IMG/VR virus record: IMGVR_UViG_3300028888_000124
Span: 2,407-66,406 of that record
From: a virus
Direction: 5' to 3' (one strand)
DNA: 64,000 bases
Made by a program: the position numbers and the translations under genes
The notes under the pieces: model-generated
What the model was told of the DNA's origin: nothing
What the model saw: the letters and a program-made list of their open reading frames with translations, nothing else
Databases searched by the model: none
In this document: in pieces, positions 10,438 to 44,321 of the stretch
How positions within the stretch are numbered: the first letter of the stretch is position 1
How the letters are laid out: the number at the start of each line of letters is the position of its first letter

Positions 10438-11991
10438 ATGAACTTTTATGATCAGCTTCAAAAGACCATCACCAACAGTGATTCCAATCGTTCTGTAACG
10501 GAAAACGGCGCTGTCGGATTCAAAACCACCGGCAGAAAGCTGCTGGATCTGAACTTTGCCGTGTCCTCTCTTCGCTCCAAGACCGACAGCGAAGTGGAGC
10601 GCATGTTTGCCGACGCTTTGGCGGACGATTTCAACACCGCCATCGTGTGGTTGTTCTTTGCCCGTGATGTGCGCGGCGGACTGGGCGAACGCCGTCTGTT
10701 CCGGGTGGCCATGAAGTATCTCGCCCGGGAATTTCCCGATACGGTGCGGAAGCTGCTGCCTCTGATCGCCGAATACGGGCGGTGGGACGATCTGCTGTGT
10801 CTGATGGGCTCCGACAAGGTAAAGAACGATGTGATTTCCATCGTGAAGGCGCAGCTCACCAGCGATATGGCGAGCATGAAAGCTGGAAAGAGCGTTTCCC
10901 TGCTCGCCAAGTGGATGTATTCGCTCAACACCTCCAGCGAAAACACCCGCAAGAAAGCGGAAATTTTTAGACGTGCCTTGGGCGTCACTCCCCGCCAGTA
11001 CCGCCTGATGCTGTCCAACCTGCGCCGCTACATTGATGTGACAGAACGGAAGATGAGCGCCAACCAGTGGGAGCAGATCAAGTATGAGGCTGTTCCCTCC
11101 CGCGCCAATTTGAATTATAACTCCGCGTTCCTCCGGCACGACGAGGCTCGCCGCCGTGCGTTCCTGGGCAAAGTGGAAAATGGAGAAGCCAAGATCAACG
11201 CTTCCGTGCTCTTCCCCCACGACATCGTGCATAAGTACAAGCAAGGGTCCTATGGTCTTACATTTGCAAACACCTCCGATCAGGCGCTGGAAGCCATGTG
11301 GAAAGCGCTGCCCAATACGGTCAAGGATGGGGAGGGCACCATCGTGGTGGCCGACGGTTCCGGCAGCATGTCTTCTCATGTGGGAAATACGGATGTTTCC
11401 GCCTGGGAAGTTGCGCATGCCCTGGCCATCTACTTTGCGGAACGGTTGCCCGGAGCGTACAAGGATCAGTACATCACCTTCTCCGAGCATCCCCAGTTGG
11501 TAAGGCTGGGCGGCAGCGGCACCTTGCTTGGCAAGATCAAGACCGCCCGTTCTCACAGCGAAGTGGCGAACACCAATATCGAAGCGGTGTTCGAGCTGAT
11601 TCTGGCAACCGCCGTTCAAAACGGCCTGCGTCAGAGCGAATTGCCCAAGAATATCCTGATCATCAGCGACATGGAGTTCGACGCCTGCGCAACTACGAAT
11701 AATGGCTGCAGCCGCTGGGACACTGTTCGCCCCACCAAGACGCTGTTCAATGCTATCGCCCGCCGCTATCACGCTCACGGGTATCAGCTTCCCCGACTGG
11801 TGTTCTGGAATGTGAACAGCCGCACCGGTACTATTCCCGTCAAGGAAAATGACCTGGGGGTGGCGTTGGTGTCCGGTTTCAGCCCCAACGTGGCGAAGAT
11901 GGTGATGTCCGGCAAGCTGGATCCCATGGACGCGCTGCTGGAAACGCTGAACGCGCCTCGGTATAACCCCGTGCGGGAAGCCCTGCGGTAA
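10438..11991 (+). CDS. DUF2828-like protein with a vWA-like MIDAS motif (DGSGSM)
   Basis: 517 aa; N-terminal GAVGFKTTGRKLLDLNF and a central vWA-like motif; RBS GAAAAGGAGAAATCAAT. Confidence 0.55.
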   Translation: MNFYDQLQKTITNSDSNRSVTENGAVGFKTTGRKLLDLNFAVSSLRSKTDSEVERMFADALADDFNTAIVWLFFARDVRGGLGERRLFRVAMKYLAREFPDTVRKLLPLIAEYGRWDDLLCLMGSDKVKNDVISIVKAQLTSDMASMKAGKSVSLLAKWMYSLNTSSENTRKKAEIFRRALGVTPRQYRLMLSNLRRYIDVTERKMSANQWEQIKYEAVPSRANLNYNSAFLRHDEARRRAFLGKVENGEAKINASVLFPHDIVHKYKQGSYGLTFANTSDQALEAMWKALPNTVKDGEGTIVVADGSGSMSSHVGNTDVSAWEVAHALAIYFAERLPGAYKDQYITFSEHPQLVRLGGSGTLLGKIKTARSHSEVANTNIEAVFELILATAVQNGLRQSELPKNILIISDMEFDACATTNNGCSRWDTVRPTKTLFNAIARRYHAHGYQLPRLVFWNVNSRTGTIPVKENDLGVALVSGFSPNVAKMVMSGKLDPMDALLETLNAPRYNPVREALR

Positions 11992-14513: not shown

Positions 14514-15113
14514 ATGGAATTTATGTATGACTGGGAAGATCGTTCCAATAATTCTTGGAGCAAAATCTTTGGTTTCAACGCAAGTCCTGTCTATCAGAAA
14601 ATCATCCAGAAGCCGGATGAAATTGAAATCAAGGTAAGTATGCCCTACGTTCTCCCCCGTGTTGAACAGGTGATTTTCAATGAAGAATCCGCCACCACCG
14701 TGATCATCTGGGCGGACGGCAAAAAGACCATCGTCCATTGTGGCGAGGGTGAAACCTTTGACCGCTACACTGGTTTCATGGCCGCTGTGTGCAAGCGTCT
14801 GTTTGGCGGCACCACGACAGCAAAGAAGCTGATGAACTCTCTGGACAAACAGTATCAGGCCAAGCTCAAAGCCGAAGCAGAAGCGAAGGAGAAAGCCAAG
14901 CGGATGGCCGAGCAGGAAGAAGCCCGGAAGAAGGCCGAAGCCCGCCATGCCAAGGAAAATGATATGCTGCTGGAAGCAATGGTGGAGCATTACCTGCTGG
15001 AAGCGGAAGCCAAGCAGCGTGCCGCTGAGATCCTGGCTGCCCGCGATACCTCCGCGCTGACCGTTCCTTTTGAGGCTGCCGCCGAAGCAGAAGGAGAAAA
15101 AAATGAAAACTAA
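14514..15113 (+). CDS. hypothetical protein with an Ala/Glu/Lys-rich C-terminus
   Basis: ORF track. Confidence 0.5.
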   Translation: MEFMYDWEDRSNNSWSKIFGFNASPVYQKIIQKPDEIEIKVSMPYVLPRVEQVIFNEESATTVIIWADGKKTIVHCGEGETFDRYTGFMAAVCKRLFGGTTTAKKLMNSLDKQYQAKLKAEAEAKEKAKRMAEQEEARKKAEARHAKENDMLLEAMVEHYLLEAEAKQRAAEILAARDTSALTVPFEAAAEAEGEKNEN

Positions 15114-15666
15114 GTTTCTGATTGTCGTAGACATGCAGAATGATTTTGTCACCGGTTCCCTGGGCTCTCAAGAAGCCCAGGGGATCGTTTCCAATGTGGT
15201 AAAGCGGATTGAAAATGCCAGAGAAAACGGCTGGTCTATCTACGCCACGCAGGATACCCATTACGACGATTACCTTGAAACGCAGGAAGGAAAGAAGCTT
15301 CCCGTCCCGCATTGCGTGATCGGAACGGAGGGCTGGGAGCTGGCTCCCGCTGTAGCGGATTGCCTGGAAAAGGAGCCCTTCATGTGCTATGAAAAGAATA
15401 CGTTTGGCAGCGTGAATCTGGCCGAGGATCTTGCCGAGATCATTCACACCGGAGATTTTGACGAGCCTGAATGCGAGATCGAATTGATCGGCCTGTGCAC
15501 GGATATCTGCGTGGTGTCCAACGCTTTGCTTTTGAAAGCCTATCTGCCTGAAGCAAACATTTCCGTCAATGCTTCCTGCTGTGCTGGGGTCACACTGGAA
15601 AAGCACAAGGCCGCACTGGAAGTAATGAGGTCCTGCCACATTAAAGTAATTGAAGGAGAAGAATAA
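15103..15666 (+). CDS. pncA: nicotinamidase / isochorismatase-family cysteine hydrolase (PncA-like)
   Basis: VVDMQNDF, conserved Lys and LCTDICV catalytic Cys motifs. Sits in an operon with nadE, nadD and pncB. Confidence 0.7.
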   Translation: MKTKFLIVVDMQNDFVTGSLGSQEAQGIVSNVVKRIENARENGWSIYATQDTHYDDYLETQEGKKLPVPHCVIGTEGWELAPAVADCLEKEPFMCYEKNTFGSVNLAEDLAEIIHTGDFDEPECEIELIGLCTDICVVSNALLLKAYLPEANISVNASCCAGVTLEKHKAALEVMRSCHIKVIEGEE

Positions 15667-16454
15667 TGTACGATTTTGACCCCGTGGAAACTCGTGATAT
15701 GTTGGTGGCGGGCATCCACCGTATTGCCCGTCAAGGCGGATTTAACAAAGTAGTTATCGGTATTTCTGGCGGAAAGGATTCTACTGTGGCTGCTGCTCTG
15801 TGCGTTCGCGCTCTTGGCAAACAAAATGTGTATGGGGTGCTGTTGCCGGATGGTGTACAAGATGACATTGATGACAGCTATAAAGTTTGTGAAACTCTTG
15901 GCATTCCTTACACAATCATCAATATTGATGAAATGCATGACTCCTTAAAAAATGGAATCATTCTTTCTCTTGACCACAATCACAATATGTCGATTCCATT
16001 TTCCGAAGAAGCTGACATCAACGTGGCTCCCCGCCTTCGTATGACGGTGCTTCGATATATCACGCAAGCATTGGGCGCTCGATTAGCCGGCACTGGAAAT
16101 CTTTCCGAAATGACCGTCGGGTATTGCACAAAAGACGGCGATACCTCCTGCGATTTCTCTGTATTGGGCGGATTAACCAGCATTGAAGTTGTTCAGGTTG
16201 GCTTGACCATGCCTGAGATTCCCCGTGAATTGGTGCTCAAAACGCCCTCCGACGGTTTGTCTGGTATGAGTGATGAAGAAAAGCTGGGTGTTTCCTACGA
16301 GGATATTCATAAGTATATTCGCGGCCTCAAAGGCGTTCCTGAAGATGTGAAGGAAAAGATTTGCAAGCTTCAGGATAGAAGTTCGCACAAGCGCCGTTGG
16401 CCTCCTATTGCTTCTTATACGGTTCACGGGAATAATCTTTGGGAGCCATTTTAA
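15666..16454 (+). CDS. nadE: NH3-dependent NAD+ synthetase
   Basis: PP-loop GISGGKDST; 262 aa. Confidence 0.85.
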   Translation: MYDFDPVETRDMLVAGIHRIARQGGFNKVVIGISGGKDSTVAAALCVRALGKQNVYGVLLPDGVQDDIDDSYKVCETLGIPYTIINIDEMHDSLKNGIILSLDHNHNMSIPFSEEADINVAPRLRMTVLRYITQALGARLAGTGNLSEMTVGYCTKDGDTSCDFSVLGGLTSIEVVQVGLTMPEIPRELVLKTPSDGLSGMSDEEKLGVSYEDIHKYIRGLKGVPEDVKEKICKLQDRSSHKRRWPPIASYTVHGNNLWEPF

Positions 16455-16463
16455 GGAGGCCGT

Positions 16464-17111
16464 ATGAAAAAAGTTTTGGCGTATTGCGGCGCGTTTAATC
16501 CGCCAACAAATGCCCATGTCAATCTTGCGGAATTGGCTTTGAAAGAAACGGGACGGGAACAGGTGGTTTTCGTCCCATCTAAAGCTGAATATATTGTGGA
16601 TGAACAAAAAAAAGAGTATGCGTATGAAGATGCTTTGCGGCTGAATATGCTGGAAGACTTGGCGCTTACTCGCCCATGGATGCATATATGCCGTCATGAT
16701 ATGGAAGGCGAAACACAGCCTCGCACTTACGAAACTTTGTGTTGGCTGAAAGAGCAGGGATATGATCCCGCTTTGCTGATTGGTTCGGATGTGCTTGAAA
16801 GCATGGAAAGAGAATGGAAGAACGCTGATAAGATCGCGCAGGAGTTTGGCATTGTTTGCCTGACAAGAAGTACCCTTCAGTTACCAGATGCCTATCAAGA
16901 TGACGCTTTTCTTGCTCCGCTGCTTCCGCGCATCACTTTTGTCCATTCGCCGGAAGAATATTTGTTGAAGTCATCCACTGGTGCACGCTACCAATATGAT
17001 CAATCCATTCGCTATTGGGAAGGGCTTTGCGATATTGTTCCGCCAGAAGTGGCTGCTTATTTGCTAAAAGATTTTGTGGATATTTTATTAGGAGGTTCTC
17101 ATGAAGCTTGA
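16464..17111 (+). CDS. nadD: nicotinate-nucleotide adenylyltransferase (NadD / NMNAT family)
   Basis: CGAFNPPTNAH nucleotidyltransferase motif; 215 aa. Confidence 0.75.
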   Translation: MKKVLAYCGAFNPPTNAHVNLAELALKETGREQVVFVPSKAEYIVDEQKKEYAYEDALRLNMLEDLALTRPWMHICRHDMEGETQPRTYETLCWLKEQGYDPALLIGSDVLESMEREWKNADKIAQEFGIVCLTRSTLQLPDAYQDDAFLAPLLPRITFVHSPEEYLLKSSTGARYQYDQSIRYWEGLCDIVPPEVAAYLLKDFVDILLGGSHEA

Positions 17112-18318
17112 GCCTATTATTATTTCTTTGCTGGATACTGACCTATATAAATTTAACATGAATCAGGTCATGTTTCATCACCACACGGATTTGTGCGGTA
17201 CTTATGTATTTAAATGCCGAAACAAGGGCGTTCGATTTACACCTGAAATGCTGGATGAGATCAATACACAGATCGATCATTTGTGCACGCTGACATTCCA
17301 GGAAGATGAATTGAATTATCTACGTTCCATCCGTTTTATCAAGCCTGATTATGTTGAGTTTTTGCGCCTGTGGCGTCCCATCCGTGATTATGTGTTTACC
17401 GCTTTGAAGGAGGATACGGGCGAACTGATTGTTCAAGTGAAAGGTCCGCTGTTCTCCGCCATGCAGTTTGAAATCTATCTATTGGAAATCATTAACGAGG
17501 TTTATTTTGCTTTCCAATACAAGGATTATTATGTTGGCATGACAATGGAAGCTGTCAATCGGTTGGATAAAAAGATCGGCGGTTTCATTACCGGACAATA
17601 CACTTTTAAATTTGCCGAATTTGGATGCCGCCGCCGTTGGAACCGAAACTGGGAAGACCGTGTGGTGGAACGCTTTGCCACAGAAACAAATAACATGGTT
17701 GGCACCAGCAACGTGTACCTTGCCAAGAAATATGGACTTACGCCTATTGGCACTTACGCCCATGAATATGTTCAAATGTATCAGGGTATTGACAAAATTC
17801 CTTTGGCATATACCAATTACTATGCGCTAAAGGATTGGTACAATGAATACAAGGGCGATAACGGCACCGCGCTGACCGATACTATCACCACCGATTTGTT
17901 CCTATTGGATTTTGACCGTTCTATGTGCAACAACTTTACCGGCGTTCGTCATGACAGCGGCGATCCCTATGTATGGGGAGAAAAGATCATTGCCCATTAT
18001 CAGAAGTACGGCATCGACCCCAAGACCAAGACGCTGTTATTCTCCGACTCTCTGAATTTCGATAAAGCCCAGGCTTTGTACGATCATTTCAAAGACAGGG
18101 CGCGGGTATCCTTTGGTATCGGCACGTTTGTTTCCAATGATACCGGTGTTGAGCCGCTGAATATTGTGATCAAGCTGCAGGAGGTCAATGGAAAACCTGT
18201 TGCTAAGCTGAGTGATTCCTTGGGCAAAACCATGTGTCAAGACGAAGAATATGTAAAGTATCTTCGCAGCGCGGTGCAATTCAGATTAGATAGAGAAGGA
18301 GCTGGCTATGGAACCTAA
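17101..18318 (+). CDS. pncB: nicotinate phosphoribosyltransferase
   Basis: N-terminal signature LLDTDLYKFNM typical of NAPRTase; 405 aa. Confidence 0.8.
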   Translation: MKLEPIIISLLDTDLYKFNMNQVMFHHHTDLCGTYVFKCRNKGVRFTPEMLDEINTQIDHLCTLTFQEDELNYLRSIRFIKPDYVEFLRLWRPIRDYVFTALKEDTGELIVQVKGPLFSAMQFEIYLLEIINEVYFAFQYKDYYVGMTMEAVNRLDKKIGGFITGQYTFKFAEFGCRRRWNRNWEDRVVERFATETNNMVGTSNVYLAKKYGLTPIGTYAHEYVQMYQGIDKIPLAYTNYYALKDWYNEYKGDNGTALTDTITTDLFLLDFDRSMCNNFTGVRHDSGDPYVWGEKIIAHYQKYGIDPKTKTLLFSDSLNFDKAQALYDHFKDRARVSFGIGTFVSNDTGVEPLNIVIKLQEVNGKPVAKLSDSLGKTMCQDEEYVKYLRSAVQFRLDREGAGYGT

Positions 18319-18676
18319 ATGGCTGTATCGTTTAGAGAGCACCGATCCGTCCATGGGGCTTTGGTATAACGCTAACGGCGAATATGTGTGGACGATTGGT
18401 ACACTGCCGGATTGCCAAACCAGAGATCTTCCCATGGGCTATGATGAACGGTATCGGAAGGACGGGCGTTCCTGGAATTCTTCCTGCTCCAACCCGGAGG
18501 ACTTGGCGCATTGGTTCTCCTTGGATGATGCGCTGACGTTGATGAAAAAGGGTTTCCGGTTTATGAGGTATTTGGCAACGGAATATACGGAATATCCTTT
18601 GGAAACTGTGTTTATTAAAGATACCTGCCTTGCCAGTGAACCTGTAGACCCGCGTACATTATACAAGGAGATATAA
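18308..18676 (+). CDS. hypothetical protein (122 aa)
   Basis: ORF track. Confidence 0.45.
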   Translation: MEPKWLYRLESTDPSMGLWYNANGEYVWTIGTLPDCQTRDLPMGYDERYRKDGRSWNSSCSNPEDLAHWFSLDDALTLMKKGFRFMRYLATEYTEYPLETVFIKDTCLASEPVDPRTLYKEI

Positions 18677-18677
18677 A

Positions 18678-19472
18678 ATGTGCACGATTCCTGCCAATTT
18701 TAAATGGAGCTTTTCAAAATAGGAAAGCTATTCTCACTGTCCCATGATGTTCAAGCTGCATTATTTGGACGGGATCAAGGGAGATAACAATGCTTTTGCG
18801 CTGTACGGTTCGCTGTGCCATTCCCTCCTGGAGGATTATGAGAAAGGCAATATCCCCTCCTTTGCTTTGGCTGAGGAATATGAATCCCGCTATGATGGCA
18901 GCATTACTGCTCCGTGGCCGCCATTTCCCAAAGGCATGGCGCAAAAGTATTACGAGCAAGGGCTTCAGTATTTTGAATCCTTTGATGGGTTCGGCGATCA
19001 ATATGAAATCATTTCCGTAGAAGAAAAGTTTGAGCTGAACATTGAAGGATATCCTTTGGTTGGGCTGGCCGACCTGGTGCTCAGGGACAAAGAAACGGGT
19101 GAGATCACCGTCATCGATCATAAGTCCAAGTCCTCCTCCACCATGCAGAAGGATCTTCCCACTTACCGAAGGCAGCTTTATATCTATGCCGCTTACGTGA
19201 AAGAAAAGTTCGGCGTGTACCCCAAGTATTTGAAATTCAATTTGTTCCGGGAGAACGAATGGGTCACAGAAGAATTTGACCTGAACATGCTCAACGAAAC
19301 GATGAAGTGGGTGGTGGAAACGATTGAAAACATTTTGTTTGAAACGGATTGGAAGGTGTCGTGCTCGTCCTACTTCTGCCGCTTTGTCTGTTCAGTTTTC
19401 GATCATTGTCCCGCCAAGGAAGCGGTGCTGAATCCTCCGCCGAAAGAAAAGAAAGAGAAAAAGAATGAATAA
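18678..19472 (+). CDS. PD-(D/E)xK Cas4/RecB-like exonuclease with a Cys cluster; in-frame TAG at 18720
   Basis: RBS AAGGAG then ATG at 18678, in frame with track ORF 18744. N-terminus SFSK(TAG)ESYSHCP fits the S.S.L..Y..CP motif; QhxxY (YRRQLY) and C-terminal CxxxCxxxxxC. Confidence 0.7.
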
Positions 19473-20763
19473 AATAAAACAAGAACTCGAAGAAATCAGA
19501 GATTATTTTCTTCCTATCATGCAGTCCTCCGGTAAGGCAAAAGAACCGTTCATCATCGATTGCGTAAGCCATCGTCTCCCCCATCTTGCGCTGTATTTTC
19601 TTCTGAATCCTTCTTATGTCACGCATGTCGGGCCCAAGTCCTTTGAGAAAAAAAAAGACATCGAGCCGAATAAGTTTTATGAGTCGATCTTTGATATCAT
19701 CGATGACTTAAAATCTGTTCCCGCTGTGAATGACCAAATGATCGCCAATATTCACAATGCGTTCTGGGATCTCGGAGATATTAAACTATTTGCTTATCAG
19801 TTTATCTGCAAAGATATTTCCCTCGGCATCACGGCAAAGACAGTCAATAAAGTGATGGATGTGGAAGTGATTCCTGAATTCCGGTGCATGCTTGCCAATA
19901 AATACTTCGAGCATCCAGAGAAGGTGGAAGGAAAGCATTTCTATTTGACGGAAAAACTGGACGGTATTCGATGCATTGCCAAAGTGACACCCGAAGAAGT
20001 GAAATTATTTTCCCGACAAGGCCAGCCGATTGAAGGTTTATTGGATATCGAAGCCGAGCTGTTGGAAACAGCTTACCGTCTGGATAAATCCTTTGCTGTG
20101 GACGGCGAACTGCTGATAATTGACCGTGACAAGATCCCGTCCAAGGAACAGTATAAACGCACCACCATGATCGTGCGGAAGGATGGCGTGAAGCAGGGCG
20201 TTGCTTATAACGTTTTTGACATCCTGGATCTGGACGCTTTCGAGAACCGCCATTGCGAGATGCCGTATTATCAGCGCCGCCAAAGATTGGAAACCTATTT
20301 CCTTGACAAGACTTATGTAAAGGTTCTTCCTGTTTTGTACCACGGCAAAGATACTTCCAAGATCATGGAGCATTTGAATATCCAGCGCAAACTGGAGCAC
20401 GAAGGTGTTATGATCAATCTGGCGGATGAGTATTATCAGTTCAGCCGCACCAACGCCTTGCTCAAAGTAAAGGTGATGCAGGACTGCGACCTTGAAATCA
20501 CGGGCGTACAGGAAGGACAAGGCAAATTTGCCGGGACGCTTGGCGCATTGATCGTTGATTACAAGGGTACTCCCGTAGGCGTAGGCTCCGGCATCAGCGA
20601 TGAGATTCGCCGTATGATTTGGGCCGACCCTGACCAATACATTGGCCGCGTTGCTACCATTCAATACTTTGAAGAAACTAACGACGCGGATGGAAAACCA
20701 TCCATTCGTTTCCCCGTGTTCAAAGAACTGCGGGAAGAAGGAAAGGAAGTAAGCTATGAGTGA
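19465..20763 (+). CDS. ATP-dependent DNA ligase
   Basis: Motif I EKLDGIR (KxDGxR), motif III DGELL, motif IV EGVMI, motif V LLKVK. Confidence 0.8.
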   Translation: MNKIKQELEEIRDYFLPIMQSSGKAKEPFIIDCVSHRLPHLALYFLLNPSYVTHVGPKSFEKKKDIEPNKFYESIFDIIDDLKSVPAVNDQMIANIHNAFWDLGDIKLFAYQFICKDISLGITAKTVNKVMDVEVIPEFRCMLANKYFEHPEKVEGKHFYLTEKLDGIRCIAKVTPEEVKLFSRQGQPIEGLLDIEAELLETAYRLDKSFAVDGELLIIDRDKIPSKEQYKRTTMIVRKDGVKQGVAYNVFDILDLDAFENRHCEMPYYQRRQRLETYFLDKTYVKVLPVLYHGKDTSKIMEHLNIQRKLEHEGVMINLADEYYQFSRTNALLKVKVMQDCDLEITGVQEGQGKFAGTLGALIVDYKGTPVGVGSGISDEIRRMIWADPDQYIGRVATIQYFEETNDADGKPSIRFPVFKELREEGKEVSYE

Positions 20764-21295
20764 TTCGGAAAAGAAATACTACATTGATGGGCCGGTAACC
20801 ATCGAGCTCATAAAGTCTACACCCCAGAAAGCGTTTTCCAATCCATATTACACCGTCGAGCCTATCATGAAACGTGTTACGAGGGCTGAGTTTGAAGCGT
20901 GGATTAAAGCGTATCCTCGTGACCTTGATGTTGATGTATATGGCGCGTGTGATCCACCCGCAGTTTCATATAACGACTTTTCTCTGGCGGATCGTTGGCC
21001 TCACAGCATTGTTGCAAGAACGTATGCCTACGATGAAAAGCCGGGAAGCTATTATTATTTCCCCGAAGAACAGCGCCATTATTACGTGATGGTGAACTAC
21101 GAAGAAGTATTCGCCAGCAAGACAGGATATATGGCTGATCATTCGGGAGGCGATCCATTTATTGTTGGAACGTTGACAATCAGTGTTCCGAGCAATGAGA
21201 AAGGCGAGATTGTTGCAGAGTTTCATGATGTGAAGACTTGTACATTTGACGTGTTTGCGAATTCGCAGGCTGATGGAGGTGAACGAGATGCCTGA
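20756..21295 (+). CDS. hypothetical protein (179 aa)
   Basis: ORF track. Confidence 0.45.
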   Translation: MSDSEKKYYIDGPVTIELIKSTPQKAFSNPYYTVEPIMKRVTRAEFEAWIKAYPRDLDVDVYGACDPPAVSYNDFSLADRWPHSIVARTYAYDEKPGSYYYFPEEQRHYYVMVNYEEVFASKTGYMADHSGGDPFIVGTLTISVPSNEKGEIVAEFHDVKTCTFDVFANSQADGGERDA

Positions 21296-22067
21296 TTCTC
21301 TCGGCGACCGTATGAAGGGCTACGAAAATGTATCCCGTATTTATTTGCCGCGCCGCCTGCCCGTTATCATCCGGGTGGACGGCAGGGCATTTCATACTTT
21401 TACAAAGGGCTTTCAAAGGCCGTTTGATGAGGTGCTTGCCCAAGCAATGCGTGAAACCGCAATCGCGCTGTGCAAGGAAATCAGCGGCGCGAAGCTGGCG
21501 TACACGCAAAGCGATGAGATTTCTATTCTGGTAACCAATAACGACACGTTAGAAACTCAGCCTTGGTTTAATAATAACTTACAAAAATTAGTTTCTTTAT
21601 CTGCGTCTACTGCGACATTGGCTTTTGACAAGGCGTTTTATTGGGCCACAGTAACGTATAAGGGTGACGGACAAATGTTTCAAGTTTATGCAAAGGCATC
21701 CAAAACCGCCACATTTGATTCCCGTGCATTTGTTTTGCCTCCAGACGAAGTTACCAATTATTTTATCTGGCGGCAGCAGGACGCTGTCCGTAATTCTATC
21801 CAGATGGTTGCACAAAGCCTATATTCTCACAAGGAACTGCAAAACAAAAACTGCGATGACCTTCAGGAAATGATATTCCAAAAAGGCATCAACTGGAATC
21901 ATTATGAGCCCTGGAAAAAGCGTGGCATTTGTGTAAGAAAAAACGATATGGCGCTCATTGCGGGTGGTAAAGAAATATTACGTGGCACTTGGGAGCCGGA
22001 TTTCAACACACCTGTTTTTACCCAGGATCGTAACTATATCAACAACTTACTTCCAAAAGGAGATTAA
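21288..22067 (+). CDS. Thg1-like protein (tRNA-His guanylyltransferase family, 3-prime to 5-prime polymerase)
   Basis: IIRVDGRAFHTF and SDEIS motifs; ATG after GGAGGTGAACGAG, in the frame of track ORF 21246..22067. Confidence 0.7.
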   Translation: MPDSLGDRMKGYENVSRIYLPRRLPVIIRVDGRAFHTFTKGFQRPFDEVLAQAMRETAIALCKEISGAKLAYTQSDEISILVTNNDTLETQPWFNNNLQKLVSLSASTATLAFDKAFYWATVTYKGDGQMFQVYAKASKTATFDSRAFVLPPDEVTNYFIWRQQDAVRNSIQMVAQSLYSHKELQNKNCDDLQEMIFQKGINWNHYEPWKKRGICVRKNDMALIAGGKEILRGTWEPDFNTPVFTQDRNYINNLLPKGD

Positions 22068-22070
22068 CGA

Positions 22071-23090
22071 ATGACGCTTGATGAAATCAAAACTTAGGTC
22101 GCTTCACCGACCTACGACTTCCTGCGTACCGATCCCCATTTGCAGGGCCGCATGGCGATGCTGTGTCTTGGCGGTTCTCATGCCTATGGCACGAATACCG
22201 AAACGAGTGATCTGGATCTTCGGGGCTGCGCCTTGAACCGTCCTGAAGAACTGCTTGGCCTTTCCCATTTTGAACAAGTTCGCAACGACGAGCTGGACGT
22301 ATGTATCTATTCCTTCAATAAAATGGTGCCGCTCCTGTATGGCTGCAACCCTAACATCATTGAGATCCTGGGCTGTAAACCGGAGCACTATTTGTTCCTG
22401 TCGGATGTTGGGAAAGAGTTGATCAGCAACCGTCATATGTTCCTGTCTCAGCGGGCATCGTATACGTTTGGGGGCTATGCCTTTTCCCAGCTTCGCCGCC
22501 TGGAGAACGCTATTGCGCGGGACAAACTGCCGCAAGCGCAAAAGGAAGGCCACATCTGCAACAGTATCGAAAAGGTGATCCGTAACTTCAACACGGAAAG
22601 CCGCGCCAAACCCGTTTCCTATATGCTTTTCCTGGCCGATGCCGTACACGATGATCTTGAAAAGGAAACGTTCATCACCACCACATTGGATATGTATCCT
22701 GTTCGTGATCTCAAGGCTTTTGTGAATGACATCAACAATGTGATTAGGGATTATGAAAACGATTTGCACGGGCGCAACAAAAAGAAGGATGACCTCCATC
22801 TGAACAAGCACGCCATGCACCTTGTCCGATTGTATCTGATGGCGATTGATATCCTGGAAAAGGAAGAGATCATCACGTACCGCGAAGCTGACCACGATCT
22901 GCTGATGGATATCCGGCATGGGAAATATCAGCTTGAAGACGGCACGTTCGATTCTGCTTTCTTCGATATGGTCAACGACTTATCCAAGAAAATGGATTAC
23001 GCAAAGGCCAATACCTCCCTTCCCCGTTCGCCCGATATGAGACGCATTGAGGAATTTATGATTGAGGTCAATAAAAAATCAATTGTTTAA
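22071..23090 (+). CDS. nucleotidyltransferase (Pol-beta-like NTase fold, GS..DLDL); in-frame TAG at 22095
   Basis: RBS AAAAGGAG then ATG at 22071, in frame with track ORF 22140; GGSHAYGTNTETSDLDL motif. Confidence 0.65.
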
Positions 23091-23101
23091 GGAGAGCTTG
23101 A

Positions 23102-23941
23102 ATGAACTATACAGGCTATAAAACTGTTCGGTAGGACGATTCTTTGATTCCGACCCTCTACACAGAGAAGGATAAAAACTGGTTTGACTTATTGGAAAAT
23201 CAATATCTTTTGATTGTGGATGAAAATGGTGCGCCGGTTGACCGCTATAAGTGGCAGGATGGAAAGCATAAGGCGGTATATAAAAAGCCCGTTGAATCCA
23301 TGGCGATGGACAAGGTGAAGCCAAAAAACCCGGAGCAGGCATTTGCCCTGGATATGTTGCTTGATCCAACGATCACCGTGAAGGTTATGACTGGATCATT
23401 TGGTTCTGGCAAAACTATGCTGGCCTGCTGCGCCGCTTTCCAAATGATGCAGGCAACGCTGTATGATAAAATCGTTTGGATCAGAAACAACATCGAGGTA
23501 AAGGACACCAACTCCATCGGCGCTTTGCCCGGAACATATGCCGATAAAATGTCGGTTTGGGCCATGCCCCTGGCGGATCACCTGGGCGGCGTAGAGGAAC
23601 TGAACAAACAAATCATGTTCGGCAAGGTCGAGGTGGAGCACCTGGGTTTTCTTCGCGGACGCGATATCAAGAACAGCATTATCATTTGTTCGGAAGCCGA
23701 GCATTTGACCCGCGAGCATGTGCAGCTTCTGCTTGGCCGTGTGGCGGAAGGGTCTGTGCTGATTCTTGAGGGAGACTGGAAGCAGATCGATAAAAAGGCA
23801 TTTGAAAAGGACAACGGCCTGCACGCCGCCATTGACTGCCTGACGGGAAACCGCCTTTTTGGTTATGTTCATTTGAATGAATCCGTTCGCAGCGAGACCG
23901 CGAAGCTGGCTGACTTGCTGGATAAAAAAGAAGGAGATTAA
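23102..23941 (+). CDS. phoH: PhoH-like ATPase; in-frame TAG at 23132
   Basis: Walker A GSFGSGKT and ICSEAEHLT; RBS AAGGAG then ATG at 23102, in frame with track ORF 23144. Confidence 0.8.
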
Positions 23942-23945
23942 ACGA

Positions 23946-24560
23946 ATGTATATTGAAACGCCAAATCTGATTATTGATACACCGGAAAACAAACTCGCCC
24001 AGCCTGATGAAATCAGTTATTACGAATAGGAAAAGAAGCGAAAGCTGTTTCTGGATTATGATGTGAACGCGGATGTGATGGCCATTGTGCGGATGATTCT
24101 GCGCTGGAATATGGAAGACGCCGGAACCCCCCCCGAATCCCGCAAACCCATCTGGCTCTACATTGAATCCATTGGCGGCAACGCGATTTATATGTGGACT
24201 TTGATCGACGCGATCTTCGCCTCCGTTACGCCTGTGTATACTGTGAATATGGGGTTGGCTGCGTCCGCTGCTGGGCTCATCTTTATGGCGGGTTCCAAAC
24301 GATTCATGATGCCGCGTGCCAAGGTGATGATTCATGAAGGCTCCGCTTCCTTTGAAGGCGACGCGGGCAAGGTGCTGGATTTTTCCGATGCCTACAAAAA
24401 AGATTTGAAAGCAACCCGCGATTTTATCCTGGATCATACTTCCATTCCCAAGGCACAGCTCACCAAAAAACGAAGCAACGATTGGGAATTGGATTCTGCG
24501 CTTTGTTTGCAGTATCATGTGTGCGATCAGATCGTGCAAAGCCTGGAAGATATTCTATAA
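23946..24560 (+). CDS. ClpP-like serine protease subunit; in-frame TAG at 24027
   Basis: IESIGGNAIY..MGLAASAAG..MIHEGS is ClpP-like; RBS AAGGAG then ATG at 23946, in frame with track ORF 24063. Confidence 0.7.
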
Positions 24561-24570
24561 AAATTCTTGG

Positions 24571-24650: not shown

Positions 24651-25091
24651 ATGATTTACCGTGAAGAAAAGATGAATCTGTTTTCTGTTCCCCAGGGTTA
24701 TATGCTGGCTCACTGCATCAGCGGTGACTTTGCTTTGGGCGCTGGCGTTGCCAAAGAAATGGACAGGGTATTCAATATGAAGGAGATGCTGAATCTTCTG
24801 TGGGGACCCATCAGCCCGATGAAGGATAAGTGGTCCGCCCCCTGCTGTCTCCCCTGTGCCAACGTGTTTAACCTGGTAACCAAAGAAAAATACTGGCATA
24901 AGCCTACGCTGGCCTCCCTTCGCACTGCGCTGGAAGAAATGTGTTCCCTCGCTGTGGAAATGGGCGTCACCAAAATTGCCATGCCCAAGATCGGCTGCGG
25001 CCTGGATCGCCTGGACTGGGAAAAAGTAAGCCCTATGATCCAGGAGATTTTCGCTGATACGGATATCGAAATTCTGGTGTGCGTATTATGA
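24651..25091 (+). CDS. macrodomain protein (ADP-ribose binding / processing)
   Basis: 146 aa with a macro-domain-like pattern (NLFSVPQGYMLAHCISGDFALGAGVA ... GVTKIAMPKIGCGLDRLDW). Confidence 0.6.
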   Translation: MIYREEKMNLFSVPQGYMLAHCISGDFALGAGVAKEMDRVFNMKEMLNLLWGPISPMKDKWSAPCCLPCANVFNLVTKEKYWHKPTLASLRTALEEMCSLAVEMGVTKIAMPKIGCGLDRLDWEKVSPMIQEIFADTDIEILVCVL

Positions 25092-25333: not shown

Positions 25334-26548
25334 ATGAAAGAACAAAGCGTTGTTTATCTGGTGAAGGTCGAGCCAGGAGCCAATAATAACAAATACTGGA
25401 AAGCAATGGCTCAAGGCGATCATTTCAACGTTGAGTATGGAAGGGTCGGCGGAACACCGCAGAAGTATTCCTATCCTATTTCCCAATGGAATAAAAAGTA
25501 CAACGAGAAGATAAAAAAAGGTTACGTTGACCGAACGGAATTGGTAGAGGATCTGATTGAAAAAGAAAAGCCCGCTACGCCGGATGGCTATCGTGCTATT
25601 GAAAACAAGGTGATCGCGGATATCGTGTCACGCTTGCAGGCCATGGCAAAGAAAGCGGTCAGCGAAAACTACACCATATCCTCCAGCAAGGTCACCATGG
25701 CAATGGTGTCTGCCGCTCAGGATCAATTAGCAAAGATGGCGGGCATGGCCGCCGCTTCCGTGGAAGAATTCAACCGCGCCTTGATTGAGCTGTTCGGTAT
25801 CATTCCCCGCAAGATGGGCCATGTATCATCCTATATTGCCACCAGCCAAAAGGAGTTTGGCCGTATTCTTGAACGCGAACAGGATCTGCTGGATGTGATG
25901 CGCGGTCAGGTGTATGTGCCGTCCAAGGAAAGCGAAATTGCCCCTCCTCCAAACGGTGAAGCCCACACGATCCTGGAAGAAAAGGGCCTTGTGTTTGAAG
26001 AAGTAACGGACGATGATATCGCCGTGATCAAATCCGCGCTTGGATCCTGTGCCGATAAATTCTGCCGCGCATGGCGAGTTACCAACCTGGCCACACAAAA
26101 ACGCTTTGATGAATATGTGCAGGGCGGCGTGAAGACAAAGCTTCTCTGGCACGGCTCCCGGAATGAAAACTGGTGGAGCATTGTGGGCAGCGGGCTGGTG
26201 TTGCGTCCCACCAATGCGGTCATCACCGGCAAGATGTTTGGCTATGGTATTTACTTTGCCACGAAAGCGCGAAAGTCTCTTGGGTACACCTCTCTTTCCG
26301 GCTCCTATTGGGCGCATGGTTCTTCCCCATCCGCGTTCATGGGGCTGTATGAAGTTGCCTACGGCAAGCCTTACGATGTGCATTCCTTTGATTCCAAATA
26401 TTATTCCCTGAATTATGAAGGGCTGCAGAAGATGTGTCCTGGGGCGAACTGCCTGCACGCGCACGAGGGCCAGATGCTTCGCAATGATGAAATCATTGTG
26501 TATCAGGAATGCCAAACGACAATCAAATATCTGGTGGAGCTCAAATAA
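25334..26548 (+). CDS. WGR-domain plus PARP catalytic-domain protein (H-Y-E triad present)
   Basis: N-terminal WGR-like YLVKVEPGANNNKYWKAMAQG..YGRVG; catalytic LLWHGSRNENWWSIVGSGL, GYGIYFATKA and NDEIIVYQ. Confidence 0.75.
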   Translation: MKEQSVVYLVKVEPGANNNKYWKAMAQGDHFNVEYGRVGGTPQKYSYPISQWNKKYNEKIKKGYVDRTELVEDLIEKEKPATPDGYRAIENKVIADIVSRLQAMAKKAVSENYTISSSKVTMAMVSAAQDQLAKMAGMAAASVEEFNRALIELFGIIPRKMGHVSSYIATSQKEFGRILEREQDLLDVMRGQVYVPSKESEIAPPPNGEAHTILEEKGLVFEEVTDDDIAVIKSALGSCADKFCRAWRVTNLATQKRFDEYVQGGVKTKLLWHGSRNENWWSIVGSGLVLRPTNAVITGKMFGYGIYFATKARKSLGYTSLSGSYWAHGSSPSAFMGLYEVAYGKPYDVHSFDSKYYSLNYEGLQKMCPGANCLHAHEGQMLRNDEIIVYQECQTTIKYLVELK

Positions 26549-30359: not shown

Positions 30360-31451
30360 ATGAGAAAATAGGCGAGCATTAAAACCATTACCAGCATTGC
30401 CCCGATTGAAGGAAAAGATTTGATCGGGCTGGCTGCCGTGGATGGCTGGGGTGTGATCGTGCAGAAGAGTCAGTTCAAGCCAGGCGATAAATGCGTGTAC
30501 GTTGAAATTGATTCCGTCATGCCTGAGAAGCCGGAGTTTGAATTTCTGCGCAAGAGAGATTTTCGCATTCGCACCATGAAGATGGCTGGCGTGATCAGTC
30601 AGGGCATCTGCTTCACGTTGGACATTCTTCCGCCCAAGAAAAACGGAAAAGAATATGCTCTGGACGAAGATGTGACGGAGGTCATCGGTGTTACCCAGTA
30701 CGAGCCTACAATGGATAAGGAACAGAACACCGAGAAAAAAGAACAGACAAAGAAATACCCCAAATGGCTGATGCGGTTTGCCTGGTTCCGGCGATTGGTA
30801 CTGGGGCCTCAAAAGAAAAAGGGCGGCTTCCCATCTTTCATTTCAAAAACAGACGAAGTGCGTATTCAGAATATCCCTCATATTCTGCAGGATAAGCGGG
30901 AATGGATCGCCACTGAAAAGGTGGATGGACAGAGCGGTACGTTTGCGCTGGTTCGCCATAAGCGCCGCATTCCCTTTATGAAGGACAAGTTTGAATACAT
31001 CGTCTGCTCCCGGAACTTGCGTTTGGCAAAGCCGGACAGTTCTTCTTACTGGCGTGTGTCCGAACGGTACAAGATCGAAAACGTTCTTGAGAATATGATT
31101 GGAGATCGTGAGTGGATCGCTATTCAGGGCGAGTGCGTTGCCCCCAACGTGCAGGGCAACAAATACAAAGTTACCGAGCCCGACCTGTATGTGTTCAATT
31201 TGATCTATCCCACCGGAAGGCTGGGAAGCAAGGTCGCCAAGTCAATCATCGAAAACCACGGCATGAAGTTTGTTCCCATCGTGGCTGAGGATTATGTGCT
31301 GCCGGATACCGTACAGGAAGTATTGGATTATGCTCATGGCCAGAGTGTATTGGGTGACACGCTGCGAGAAGGCATTGTTTTTCGCAGTAAAGACGGCGTG
31401 CATTCATTCAAAGCTGTCGATCCATTATTCCTGATCAAATACAACGAATAA
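30360..31451 (+). CDS. ATP-dependent RNA ligase (KxDG nucleotidyltransferase; N-terminal domain of the MRKLASI-type); in-frame TAG at 30369
   Basis: ATG at 30360 after GAAAGGA, in frame with track ORF 30420. N-terminus MRK(TAG)ASIKTI..PIEGKD; EKVDGQSGT motif. Confidence 0.7.
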
Positions 31452-31466: not shown

Positions 31467-32552
31467 ATGTCCAGAAGCTACGAGGAAGATCGTATCAAAC
31501 TGCAAAAGCTGATCAAGAGGATCATCATTGCTGTTGTTTCTCTGATTGCTGCTTTGGTTCTGGTCACCCAGACCATTGGTATTGTGCCTGTCAACCATAC
31601 GGGCGTATGGAAACGAGCTGGGGTTGTGCAGGATGCGGCAGTCAAAGAAGGTTGGCATTTGAAGATTCCTTTTGTGGATTCTATCGAAACCATTTCCAAC
31701 TTGGTGCAGACCACTACTGTTTCCTTTGCTCAGACAAAAGAAACGGCAGAAACCAAGGATCAGCAACTGATTATGGATTACGCTTTTGAAATTCAGCATC
31801 AGTTAGTGCCCGAGCAAAGCTTTGTCGTCTATAAGAATTATGGCAAAAACTATGAGCAAATGCTCATCACCTCTAATGTTCTTCCTGTGATCAAGCAAGC
31901 CTTCGCCAATTATGAAAGCGAGGAAATCACCACGCACAAAGAAGATATTGCGCTGTATATTCAAGGCAAATTGCAGTCATTCACTAAGGAATTCGGTATC
32001 AAAATCCTTCGTGTCAATTTCCAAAGCTATGATTTCACGAAGGAGTACGACGCGATTCTGGAAGAACGCGCCACCCTGAAAGCAAGAGTCACCAATGAAG
32101 AACTGCGCCAGAATCAGGAGCGGGTAGCGGCACAGACCGCCTATGATGTGGCGGTAAAACGCGCCGAGCAAGAAGCCGAAACAGCGAGGATTGCGGCAGA
32201 CAACGCCAAAGAAGTAGCGCTCGTAAAGGCCGAACAGGATAAGCAGACTGCATTGATCCAGGCGAACGCAAAAGCGGAGGCGGCGAAGATCGAGGCTGAC
32301 AACAAAGCATATGTAACTGTTACTTTGGCGGACGCGGATCGTGACGCCCGGCTTGCGGCAGCGGAAGCAACCAAAGCAGAATTGGAAGCGCAGGCCGCAG
32401 GGCTGACCGACCTTGTGATTCAGCGTGAATGGATCAACCGCTGGAATGGTAAGCTGATTCCCAGTTTTGGAACAGGCAGCGGATTGAGTTTTACTAATAT
32501 GACCGATATCATGAAATACTTTTTTGAGGAGACGGTAAAGGATGCAGAATAA
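31467..32552 (+). CDS. SPFH / band-7 domain membrane protein
   Basis: N-terminal TM then GVWKRAGVVQDAAVKEGWHLKIPFVDSI and an Ala/Glu coiled coil. Confidence 0.65.
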   Translation: MSRSYEEDRIKLQKLIKRIIIAVVSLIAALVLVTQTIGIVPVNHTGVWKRAGVVQDAAVKEGWHLKIPFVDSIETISNLVQTTTVSFAQTKETAETKDQQLIMDYAFEIQHQLVPEQSFVVYKNYGKNYEQMLITSNVLPVIKQAFANYESEEITTHKEDIALYIQGKLQSFTKEFGIKILRVNFQSYDFTKEYDAILEERATLKARVTNEELRQNQERVAAQTAYDVAVKRAEQEAETARIAADNAKEVALVKAEQDKQTALIQANAKAEAAKIEADNKAYVTVTLADADRDARLAAAEATKAELEAQAAGLTDLVIQREWINRWNGKLIPSFGTGSGLSFTNMTDIMKYFFEETVKDAE

Positions 32553-32844
32553 ATTCGCCCATATCGGAATGGGCACAGTGGTTCAGGTCAGCCGCATTGT
32601 ATTTATTACTTCCCTTGGCACCACCACAGCTAACCGCTATGTGGAGAACGCGAAGGCAGCCGGGAAGCTACACAATGCCACATTGGGGCATAAATACAGA
32701 AGCCTGATTGTTATGGACGATGGCACTGTACTGATTTCCTGCATTAAACCCATGACGCTGATGAAAAGAATGAACGGTATCATGGGGCTTGAAAACGAAA
32801 CCGAAGAAGACGAGGGCGAGGAAAGCGAGGAACCTGAAGCATGA
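32542..32844 (+). CDS. DUF370 / RemA-like protein
   Basis: HIGMGTVVQVSRIVFITS..GKLHNATLGHKYRSLIVMDDGTVLIS pattern. Confidence 0.45.
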   Translation: MQNKFAHIGMGTVVQVSRIVFITSLGTTTANRYVENAKAAGKLHNATLGHKYRSLIVMDDGTVLISCIKPMTLMKRMNGIMGLENETEEDEGEESEEPEA

Positions 32845-33503
32845 GGATCATCAACCAATCCGCTGTCGCCCTGGACCCGCTCTGCATGGATGAAGGCATT
32901 CGCGCACTGAAGCTGTGTGAGCGGGCGGGGCGTACCTGCTATAATTCCATTGACAAAATTACTGATGACAGCTACGAACGTTTCCTGCGCAGTATCATCA
33001 AGCGCGGCCATACCTCCGTGCTGGAGCATGGCAAGGTTACGCTGGAAGTGGTAACGGGGCGTGACGTGCTGGCTGAGATCACGCGGCATCGTCTCTGCTC
33101 TTTCAGTGTACAGAGCCAGCGCTATGTGCAGGCGGATAAGGAAGGCGGTATCGCGTTCATCAAGCCGCACTTCTATGTTCCCAAAGATGGCAGTCTGTTG
33201 GACGCTAAAGCCTACGTTGCCTCCCGTGCCTGGGAAACGGATATGCAATACACCGAAGCGGCCTATGCCCGCAACATCAACGAATACGGTCTGCCTCCAG
33301 AGGATGCCAGGAAGGTACTGCCTAATTCAGCGGCCACCCAGTTTGTGATCACAACGAATTTCCGTGAGCTTCTGCACATCATTGAGCTTCGCACTTCCGT
33401 CCGTGCGTATCCTGAAATGCGCCAAATGATGGATTGCGTGATTGACGCCTTAGAGCGTGTTATCCCGCCTATCTGGACCTGGGGAAAGGATGAAACCGTA
33501 TGA
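32841..33503 (+). CDS. thyX: flavin-dependent thymidylate synthase
   Basis: ThyX signature RHRLCSFSVQSQRY (RHRx7S..R). Confidence 0.85.
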   Translation: MRIINQSAVALDPLCMDEGIRALKLCERAGRTCYNSIDKITDDSYERFLRSIIKRGHTSVLEHGKVTLEVVTGRDVLAEITRHRLCSFSVQSQRYVQADKEGGIAFIKPHFYVPKDGSLLDAKAYVASRAWETDMQYTEAAYARNINEYGLPPEDARKVLPNSAATQFVITTNFRELLHIIELRTSVRAYPEMRQMMDCVIDALERVIPPIWTWGKDETV

Positions 33504-33703
33504 TCAAGCTGTATTCCCTGAAAGGCTGCCCCATGTGCAGTCACGCCAAAGAAGTGCTGTCGAAAAAGAATATTCCGTTCGAGCAAATAATGGACGCGGA
33601 TATCATGTCCGCGAAAGGGATCACCCATGTGCCCGTCCTTGAAACAGAAAATGGGAACCTCCTCACTGGGAAAGCTCTTGTCCAATATTTGAATACATTA
33701 TAA
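33500..33703 (+). CDS. nrdH: glutaredoxin-like NrdH redoxin
   Basis: CPMC active site; 67 aa; lies upstream of nrdD. Confidence 0.65.
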   Translation: MIKLYSLKGCPMCSHAKEVLSKKNIPFEQIMDADIMSAKGITHVPVLETENGNLLTGKALVQYLNTL

Positions 33704-33718
33704 AGGAGCTTTAGCTTT

Positions 33719-35611: not shown

Positions 35612-35801
35612 AACAATCAAAAATCCCGATAAAGAATTTCTGAAGCAATTCAAAAAAGAACTGAAGGATAACTCCGGCTACTGCCCTTGCCGCCCCATCA
35701 AAACGCCGGACACAAAATGTCCATGCAAACCTTTCCGGGATACAGGAGAATGCATTTGCGGCCTGTATATCCAGGTTCCCACTTATGATGATGAGGAATA
35801 A
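35601..35801 (+). CDS. small CPC/CxC Cys-rich protein (ferredoxin-thioredoxin-reductase-like motif)
   Basis: CPCRP..CPCKP..CIC pattern. Confidence 0.35.
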   Translation: MKYKTIKNPDKEFLKQFKKELKDNSGYCPCRPIKTPDTKCPCKPFRDTGECICGLYIQVPTYDDEE

Positions 35802-35804
35802 GCG

Positions 35805-36047
35805 ATGTATTACTGCGATTCCTGCGGTGCTGAATTTGAAACGCCGCATTTGTAGAAAGAAAACTATGGCATGGCGGGACCTTATTATGATGAGGTTCCC
35901 GTCTGCCCTCGCTGCAGAGAGCCGATGATCATTCAAATGGTTCAATGTTCCTGCTGTAACGAATGGACACCGCTGCGTTATATCAGAACAGATGACGGGC
36001 GCGTCTACTGCGAAAATTGTTTTCACTGGGAGGATCCTTCATGGTAA
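35805..36047 (+). CDS. zinc-ribbon protein; in-frame TAG at 35853
   Basis: RBS GAGGAATAAGCG then ATG; CxxC..CxxC..CxxC..CxxC. Confidence 0.4.
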
Positions 36048-36714: not shown

Positions 36715-36716
36715 AC

Positions 36717-44230: not shown

Positions 44231-44254
44231 ATTGTCAAGAAACATGTGCAGCAA

Positions 44255-44290
44255 AACAAACAAAGAGGCTTGCGCCTCTCCGCTCACGGT
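44255..44290 (-). terminator. minus-strand hairpin agaggc-gcaa-gcctct plus TTGTTTGTTTTG
   Basis: Read directly from the sequence. Confidence 0.4.
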
Positions 44291-44321
44291 GTGCACGTAT
44301 TCCAGGTATGCGATGAGGAGA

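Follow-up and report, generated by a model that had tools for sequence, protein, structure and literature searches.

A dispersed, probably tRNA-directed set of RNA-end repair genes in a phage with in-frame TAG codons

The RNA-repair kits of phages, as set out in section 3.4.9 of Iyer et al. (2021, Viruses 13:63, PMC7824862), draw on several RNA ligase families, Rnl1/Rnl2 among them, together with RlaP, RtcB, a CCA-adding enzyme, Thg1, phosphoesterases and Macro/NAD genes. The gene set considered here, in a 64,000-nucleotide stretch of phage DNA (positions 2,407 to 66,406 of IMG/VR record IMGVR_UViG_3300028888_000124; hereafter the window), consists of a Thg1-like protein (TLP), an RlaP-family nucleotidyltransferase, two RNA ligases of different families and two metallophosphoesterases (MPE1 and MPE2). 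We read it, with a probability only a little above one half (about 0.55), as a dispersed toolkit for the repair of RNA ends, probably those of tRNAs. In the part of their account that deals with jumbo phages, Iyer, Anantharaman, Krishnan, Burroughs and Aravind (2021) describe kits made up of the same families, including more than one ATP-grasp RNA ligase family per genome, with Macro/NAD genes nearby and with a proposed purpose that is likewise the reversal of host attacks on tRNA. Unlike those kits, the one described here comes without a kinase, a CCA enzyme, RtcB or an array of tRNAs in the covered part of the genome, and its RlaP is not beside a ligase but start-stop coupled to TLP; moreover, the genome is ~118 kb, not that of a jumbo phage, and two of the kit genes need TAG as a sense codon.

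Several better characterised systems contain relatives of the individual enzymes. Phage T4 repairs PrrC-cleaved tRNA-Lys with Pnkp and Rnl1, and also has an RlaP homologue, NrdC.11. An Rnl1-family ligase is common to T4 and the present phage, but the Pnkp kinase-phosphatase was not found in the covered part of the genome, the ligase fails the threshold for T4 RnlA equivalogs and is nearer to the ligase domain of Trl1, and whereas the T4 system targets PrrC damage, no anticodon nuclease partner is known for the present phage. The RlaP of the Pseudomonas RtcB-RlaP-RtcA operons (Carruthers, Fatma and Huang, 2025 preprint) shares its catalytic aspartates with the phage protein; those operons have RtcB and RtcA, however, neither of which was seen with the phage RlaP, and the ligases that are its partners in the phage use 5'-phosphate ends, which would suit the 3'-OH product of RlaP better than the RtcB/RtcA setting does. 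The TLP of Bacillus thuringiensis (4KGK/4KGM) and the Bacillus phage enzymes have ~54% full-length identity to the TLP described here and identical catalytic residues, but in Bacillus phage Goe8 the gene after TLP encodes a protein of no relation and RtcB is 3 kb off, whereas here TLP is in an operon with RlaP.

The window is part of the ENA contig ERZ27257205 k141_3889370 (69,949 bp), and the identical sequence was also assembled in JGI 3300032030 and Logan SRR9006805; the phage is a large one of the rumen or gut. The 70-kb contig is incomplete: one of its ends is a 15-nt tandem repeat and the other lies in a 132-nt tandem repeat (L200:14390-14768) that overlaps the 48.5-kb JGI contig Ga0310697_10000562, which carries tube, tape-measure and baseplate genes. 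Given this overlap, the genome would be ~118 kb, similar to the 110-114 kb of its relatives. The portion covered comprises the window, the 70-kb contig and the next 14.7 kb, or ~85 kb, with ~34 kb outside coverage; no close GenBank phage was found at the DNA level. Within the window the coding strand is plus almost throughout to ~53 kb and minus thereafter to the end. Families were assigned from Pfam scans of all window open reading frames (ORFs) and from PHROG and PDB sequence matches, tRNA genes were sought with ARAGORN, and P-loop proteins with a Walker-A scan.

Six repair-related genes and their catalytic residues

The six genes are as follows.

21288-22067, plus strand: bacterial-type Thg1-like protein (TLP), of the templated 3'-to-5' nucleotidyltransferase family (PF04446, 4KGK, PHROG 4717)
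22071-23090, plus strand: RlaP-family Pol-beta nucleotidyltransferase (PF10127, PHROG 388), with an in-frame TAG at 22095-22097 (codon 9)
30360-31451, plus strand: Rnl5-type (NgrRnl/DraRnl) nick-sealing RNA ligase with an N-terminal OB domain and an NTase domain (PF21189, PF09414, 5COT), with a TAG at 30369-30371 (codon 4)
37790-38515, plus strand: metallophosphoesterase MPE1 (PF00149, 35.7 bits; PHROG 1649)
44687-45628, plus strand: Rnl1/Trl1-type ATP-dependent RNA ligase (PF09511, 130 bits; 6N0V, E 3e-14; motif KENG)
48414-48935, plus strand: metallophosphoesterase MPE2 (PHROG 547, 139 bits; PDB 1XM7, E 1e-6)

An earlier reading of the letters alone (the sequence-only reading) had proposed a Thg1-like enzyme next to a Pol-beta-type nucleotidyltransferase, two different RNA ligases and two calcineurin-like phosphoesterases. 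Profile searches bear out all six family calls, each with a significant match to a gene at or near the place it had given. For TLP, the score against the Pfam Thg1 family (PF04446) is 112.4 bits, with a cutoff of 29.2; the alignment with the TLP of B. thuringiensis (BtTLP; PDB 4KGK) runs end to end over residues 3-253 at E 5e-74, and PHROG 4717 is matched at 318 bits. In an alignment of TLP, BtTLP and 78 homologues from phages, the catalytic and nucleoside triphosphate-binding residues E12, R28, D30, S74, D75, E76 and R131, as named for BtTLP by Hyde et al. (2013; PMC3701042), are all conserved, including the three carboxylates (D30, D75 and E76) on which the sequence-only reading had staked this assignment. 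At the position of BtTLP K43 the phage protein has Arg, as do 38 of the 78 phage homologues. The HINNLYN motif with which eukaryotic Thg1 recognises tRNA-His is absent (VRNSIQM stands there), and TLP reads WRQQDAVRNSIQMV, resembling WRQQDASKNSISMV in BtTLP. BtTLP is itself a 5'-end repair enzyme (PMC3701042). Homologues of TLP are present in 164 GenBank phage records, and those of phages carry the annotation tRNA-His guanylyltransferase.

RlaP matches PF10127 at 60.1 bits (cutoff 23) and PHROG 388 at 181 bits over residues 2-309, and has homologues in 311 GenBank phage records; no solved RlaP structure matched it by sequence at E 0.01. The true start of the gene is the ATG at 22071, which lies 3 nt past the TLP stop and 7 nt past an AAAGGAG Shine-Dalgarno sequence, and the resulting N-terminus agrees with that of RlaP in the closest relative, locus L001. 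The GS motif (G35, S36) and the carboxylates D47 and D49 are invariant in six diverse members of the family, with the third carboxylate being Asp in five and Glu in one. The enzymes characterised so far, which according to the account in PMC12776372 are solely those of Pseudomonas, add one or two nucleoside monophosphates to RNA 3'-OH ends, restore the function of over-damaged tRNA in vitro and, as reported there, accept only RNA among cellular macromolecules. The association with a ligase that the family name would lead one to expect, which is a matter of gene context and no structural criterion, is not seen: TLP and PhoH flank the gene, and 7.3 kb separate it from the closest gene for an RNA ligase. 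In phages of Klebsiella (Vequintavirinae) and of Vibrio (L198:686-5056, L199:2176-5023), the RlaP gene is preceded, 2-3 kb upstream, by one for a CCA-adding tRNA nucleotidyltransferase, a further case in which RlaP accompanies an enzyme active on the ends of tRNAs.

The Rnl5-type ligase is matched by the OB domain family PF21189 (PHA02142) at 94 bits and by PF09414 at 72 bits, and aligns with NgrRnl (5COT) at E 1e-39, with KVDGQS opposite KLDGSS. The N-terminal OB domain, the adenylyltransferase domain and the KxDG motif are common to this protein and the Rnl5 enzymes of Naegleria gruberi and Deinococcus radiodurans, from which it differs in the TAG at codon 4 and in a score below the cutoff of the DraRnl equivalog (TIGR02306; 139 bits against 151), and it is a member of the family but not a DraRnl equivalog. 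The sequence-only reading had described an MRKLASI-type ligase; the ligase family stands, but those letters are not literally encoded, as the gene begins M-R-K-TAG-A-S-I and its frame is interrupted under the standard code. In the TAG column, 29 of 30 viral homologues have Leu and the other has Met. With TAG at codon 4, an intact ligase requires that TAG be a sense codon.

The second ligase had been called T4 Rnl1-like. It does belong to the Rnl1 superfamily, but its 29 bits against the T4 RnlA equivalog (TIGR02308), to which a C-terminal domain for tRNA specificity belongs, are far from the cutoff of 242, and no T4 Rnl1 chain is found among its PDB matches at E 0.01. Its closest solved relatives are the ligase domains of fungal Trl1, with which its motif I, KENG, is aligned letter for letter. 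As for the phosphoesterases, MPE1 has weak similarity to PPP phosphatases, while MPE2, for which no Pfam match was obtained at 0.01, displays all of the metal-binding motifs in its translation (ADLHF, LGDVG, GNHD, MHEP, GHVHG); its match in the PDB, 1XM7, is an uncharacterised Aquifex protein, and it also matches the ligase-associated PdeM family weakly. Homologues of MPE2 directly follow Rnl5 in two loci (L095 and L097) and lie no more than ~2 kb from TLP in six of 80. Both are generic metallophosphoesterases and at best candidates for healing 3' ends.

Gene order and transcription around TLP and RlaP

Two further genes flank the coupled pair.

20756-21295, plus strand: orf179, with no assigned function, between DNA ligase and TLP and translationally coupled
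23102-23941, plus strand: PhoH-like P-loop ATPase (PF02562, 130 bits), directly downstream of RlaP, with a TAG at 23132 (codon 11)

The first of these overlaps both the stop of the DNA ligase gene and the start of TLP. It has no Pfam or PHROG family match and only 27 database homologues, and for the core of its AlphaFold model (residues 30-125, with a predicted local distance difference test score above 90) no fold match in the PDB better than E 2 was found. Strong plus-strand terminators are absent from 18,000 to 24,569, the first being at 24569, after the ClpP-like gene, and the genes for the PD-(D/E)XK nuclease, the ATP-dependent DNA ligase, orf179, TLP, RlaP, PhoH and ClpP are therefore probably co-transcribed. 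In L001, where identity is 69-70%, the TLP and RlaP genes overlap by 11 nt in the midst of different flanking genes. The start-stop coupling of the two genes suggests that their products work on both strands of one acceptor end.

Candidate substrates and rival explanations

If the enzymes serve a common purpose, TLP would rebuild the 5' side of a tRNA acceptor stem that has lost nucleotides, with the 3' strand as template, starting from the 5'-phosphate or 5'-triphosphate end that it requires, and RlaP, probably encoded on the same transcript, would extend the 3'-OH end by one or two nucleotides without a template. Breaks in loops with 3'-OH and 5'-phosphate ends would be sealed by the Rnl1/Trl1-type ligase and nicks in duplex stems by the Rnl5-type ligase, with the metallophosphoesterases being at best candidates for the removal of 2',3'-cyclic or 3'-phosphates. 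We infer these substrates, this order of steps and a role in countering host nucleases that attack tRNA.

The sequence-only reading had gone further, proposing that the set heals and seals both ends of cleaved tRNAs in the manner of T4 Pnkp and Rnl1 as a defence against host anticodon nucleases. The families and catalytic residues (the KVDG and KENG lysines, the RlaP carboxylates) are indeed there, but the healing of ends is not accounted for, as there is no kinase, the metallophosphoesterases are generic and the genes do not form an operon. Neither the Pfam scans of all window ORFs nor the Walker-A scan, in the ~85 kb of the genome covered, revealed a polynucleotide 5'-kinase; nor did a hidden one come to light, the only P-loop proteins that the Walker-A scan brought up in the window being AAA_24, a DnaB-like helicase and PhoH. 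A 2H or HAD phosphatase, a CCA-adding enzyme and Pth were likewise not found in this portion, nor was a tRNA gene, in the window, the whole 70-kb contig or the next 14.7 kb. Because both the ATP-dependent ligases and TLP need a 5'-phosphate, the visible gene set could not by itself carry out T4-style healing and sealing, and because the enzymes just named were not found, ends of the kind left by PrrC, RloC or colicins (5'-OH and 2',3'-cyclic phosphate) would be beyond it; a link to defence against these anticodon nucleases is one that we can only infer, and no host nuclease that cleaves tRNA is known for this phage. Gene order adds to these points. The repair genes are dispersed over 38 kb, RlaP is within 4 kb of TLP in only two of 80 phage loci (by tblastn and jackhmmer), and their adjacency is limited to the present lineage and its closest relative, so that a conserved TLP-RlaP operon was rejected. 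Even the commonest family among TLP neighbours occurs in only 10 of the 80 loci, and the families concerned (HAD, Macro, Nampt, metallophosphoesterase, Pth2) amount to a loosely assembled 'auxiliary island', not to an operon. The syntenic 110-kb relative L269 lacks TLP entirely. A gene for an SPFH/Band-7 protein (31467-32552, plus strand) directly follows that of the Rnl5-type ligase, but this adjacency is kept in only one of 30 loci, and a conserved Rnl5/Band-7 module like the SPFH-linked repair systems reportedly described by Burroughs and Aravind (2016) was rejected; no tRNA-like RNA was found near the Band-7 gene, the sole Rfam match being RT-2. The absences and the gene order weigh against the toolkit reading.

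The main rival, which we regard as doubtful, is that RlaP and the Rnl5-type ligase form a DNA replication and repair module that processes RNA-containing ends and nicks (primers, ribonucleotides, RNA-DNA junctions), to which TLP is a later accessory insertion, with the metallophosphoesterases being nucleases or protein phosphatases. NgrRnl-type ligases seal nicks in duplexes that have RNA as the 3'-OH strand, and in the window the Rnl5-type ligase gene stands immediately after DnaE and the genes of the replication and repair block are probably co-transcribed. The order in L269 is PD-(D/E)XK nuclease, DNA ligase, three small ORFs, orf179 (L269:10001-10507, directly upstream of RlaP), RlaP, PhoH, ClpP and, further along, DnaE and Rnl5, from which TLP would be an accessory insertion at the start of RlaP, and there RlaP and Rnl5 are parts of a conserved replication and repair block; the weak match of MPE2 to PdeM points the same way. 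Yet the RNA-only substrate range reported for characterised RlaP (PMC12776372) is hard to reconcile with such a module, TLP has no known role on DNA and was inserted exactly at the RlaP start, with the coupling kept in L001, and a second RNA ligase, of the loop type, is also present. Simple co-occurrence by chance of independent auxiliary genes with no common pathway would account for the spread of the repair genes over 38 kb, for neighbourhoods that are not conserved and for the mosaic gene content of relatives, but four RNA-terminus enzymes exceed what a phage typically contains, the start-stop coupling of TLP with RlaP is seen in two lineages, and MPE2-like genes recur beside Rnl5 and TLP in other phages, and we think it quite unlikely.

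It is also conceivable, if unlikely, that the enzymes service the tRNA supply of the phage itself, through maturation and upkeep of phage tRNAs, including one that reads UAG, or through the addition of G-1 to tRNA-His, and are not directed at nucleases at all. In-frame TAG in many essential genes entails dependence on a UAG-reading tRNA, members of the Thg1 family act on the 5' ends of tRNAs, and the annotation of the phage TLP homologues is that of a tRNA-His enzyme. Set against this are the lack of any tRNA gene in ~85 kb, the lack of HINNLYN together with a closeness to BtTLP that points to generic 5'-end repair and not to tRNA-His specificity, and the fact that most of the phages bearing TLP are not known to be recoded; in addition, RlaP and the Rnl5-type ligase themselves contain TAG and could not be made before UAG decoding works. 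The sequence-only reading had suggested that the set may help to maintain a pool of suppressor tRNAs, of which the need for UAG decoding is borne out, whereas such a tRNA was not found in ~85 kb and no tie to the repair genes was seen. A more specific proposal, that TLP, RlaP and the two ligases maintain, mature or remodel a tRNA that reads UAG as leucine, making the repair kit part of the TAG-to-Leu machinery considered below, strikes us as very unlikely. We continue to favor, at the odds given at the outset, a toolkit that repairs RNA ends and probably those of tRNAs.

Several other features of the window recall the gene content of described kits or bear on RNA and nucleotide metabolism.

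10438-11991, plus strand: 517-aa protein with DUF2828 and a vWA-like DUF7788 (PF11443, 121 bits; PF25043, 149 bits; PHROG 850, 471 bits)
15070-18318, plus strand: complete NAD+ salvage set (isochorismatase/PncA-like, NAD synthase, NMN/NaMN adenylyltransferase-like, nicotinate phosphoribosyltransferase)
24651-25091, plus strand: Macro-domain protein
25334-26548, plus strand: protein with WGR and PARP catalytic domains
32542-37217 and 41663-42490, plus strand: nucleotide-metabolism block (RemA-like, ThyX, NrdD with its activase, dUTPase, FolD)

The first of these is labelled 'RNA-binding protein' in PHROGs and keeps its position in the relatives L268-L270; no solved relative was found by sequence. 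It is possibly an accessory RNA-handling factor, and may be a candidate for a Ro/TROVE-like RNA chaperone. The NAD+ salvage set, which is missing from L269 at the same position (between the helicase and the PD-(D/E)XK nuclease), may serve to counter NAD-depleting defences. The Macro and PARP genes constitute a transcription unit of their own, bounded by terminators at 24569 and 26553 and lying directly after the unit that contains TLP, RlaP, PhoH and ClpP.

In-frame TAG codons and the residue they specify

Some 70 in-frame TAGs occur in essential genes, early and late, and they are found throughout the window (for example at 8875, 22095, 23132, 24027, 30369, 43757-44210, 56292, 60650 and 62057) as well as beyond it (L200:3347-14766). 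The genes affected include those for RlaP, the Rnl5-type ligase, PhoH, SSB, the ClpP-like protein, AAA_24, NrdD (the anaerobic ribonucleotide reductase, with TAG at codon 4), a RuvC-like resolvase, a reverse transcriptase, lysin, tail and tape measure. In SSB, the TAG falls within 'IIGR-TAG-TGDP', at the canonical GRL motif. The RuvC-like gene (43718-44230, plus strand; PDB RuvC, E 1e-4 with X at the TAGs) has five of them and was missed by standard ORF calling, which placed a spurious minus-strand ORF there (43742-44296); a tail protein over 2,000 residues long was split into three in the same way, and the tape-measure protein has 17 TAGs. Among the 90 standard-code ORFs, 45 end with TAA, 36 with TGA and nine with TAG, the last of which are read through in frame. 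That the TAGs are nonsense mutations, or their genes pseudogenes, was rejected because there are ~70 in essential genes and because the same TAG is seen in independent assemblies and in nine relatives.

We tallied the residue opposite each TAG in homologues, with homologous DNA translated by the standard code. Of the sites sampled by five or more homologues, 30 in all, 18 have Leu as the most frequent residue and not one has Gln. The counts at individual sites were as follows.

Tail protein, first TAG site: Leu in 73 of 80 homologues
Tail protein, second TAG site: Leu in 76 of 79 homologues
LRR repeats, TAG sites: Leu in 12 of 14 and in 13 of 14 homologues
Tape measure, TAG at position 490: Leu in 35 of 35 homologues
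o991, TAG at position 67: Leu in 46 of 59 homologues

Against the syntenic relative L269, Leu is opposite TAG at five of seven sites. The relatives L117 and L172 have TAG at polar or Glu positions, as code 15 predicts. At a site in the tube protein (P0001; L201:686-1525, L202:449-1288, L200:94-933), where a TAG is common to nine IMG/VR relatives, databases show Q but the DNA has TAG, because the source pipelines translated with code 15. TAG as Gln (code 15) was thus rejected for the present phage, Gln never being the commonest residue at TAG columns and the database Q being an artefact. These alignments imply a putative TAG-to-Leu code, although another hydrophobic or a non-standard residue at TAG is possible on the same evidence. 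A UAG-reading tRNA, with anticodon CUA, was not found in the contig, in L200 or in ~260 other loci. For phages whose code is unlike that of the host, Borges et al. state that TAG-to-Gln and TGA-to-Trp are the only changes to occur, and we found no report of TAG-to-Leu in the literature on phage recoding that we searched.

The two tyrosine integrase genes of the window (6151-7074 and 52026-53210, both on the plus strand) contain no in-frame TAG, in agreement with reports that temperate phages with a changed code keep recoded stops out of their integrases. One TAG, at 56292, lies in the reverse transcriptase gene (~55747-56745) of a diversity-generating retroelement at 55747-59138 on the minus strand. 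The template repeat of this element is at 57120-57301, its two variable repeats (57771-57952 and 58957-59138) are each located at the 3' end of an LRR_5/DUF6273 tail gene, and within the template/variable portion the substitutions coincide with template adenines; the Rfam RT-2 RNA (127 bits) at 56951-57174 overlaps the end of the template repeat.

As a gene set, then, the repair kit is ordinary for a large phage and of a kind already described. Its modest new detail is the start-stop coupled TLP-RlaP pair, which suggests a two-enzyme repair of both strands of the tRNA acceptor end. The decoding anomaly is a larger surprise than the kit itself: for two kit genes and dozens of others, the standard code gives wrong gene calls and code 15 wrong translations, and the 'Q' residues that databases show in this phage clade can be artefacts. 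If the reading of TAG as leucine is true, as metaproteomics or a tRNA-Leu(CUA) gene would confirm, it would add a new natural code to those of phages and be a warning that public pipelines write glutamine into these phage proteins.

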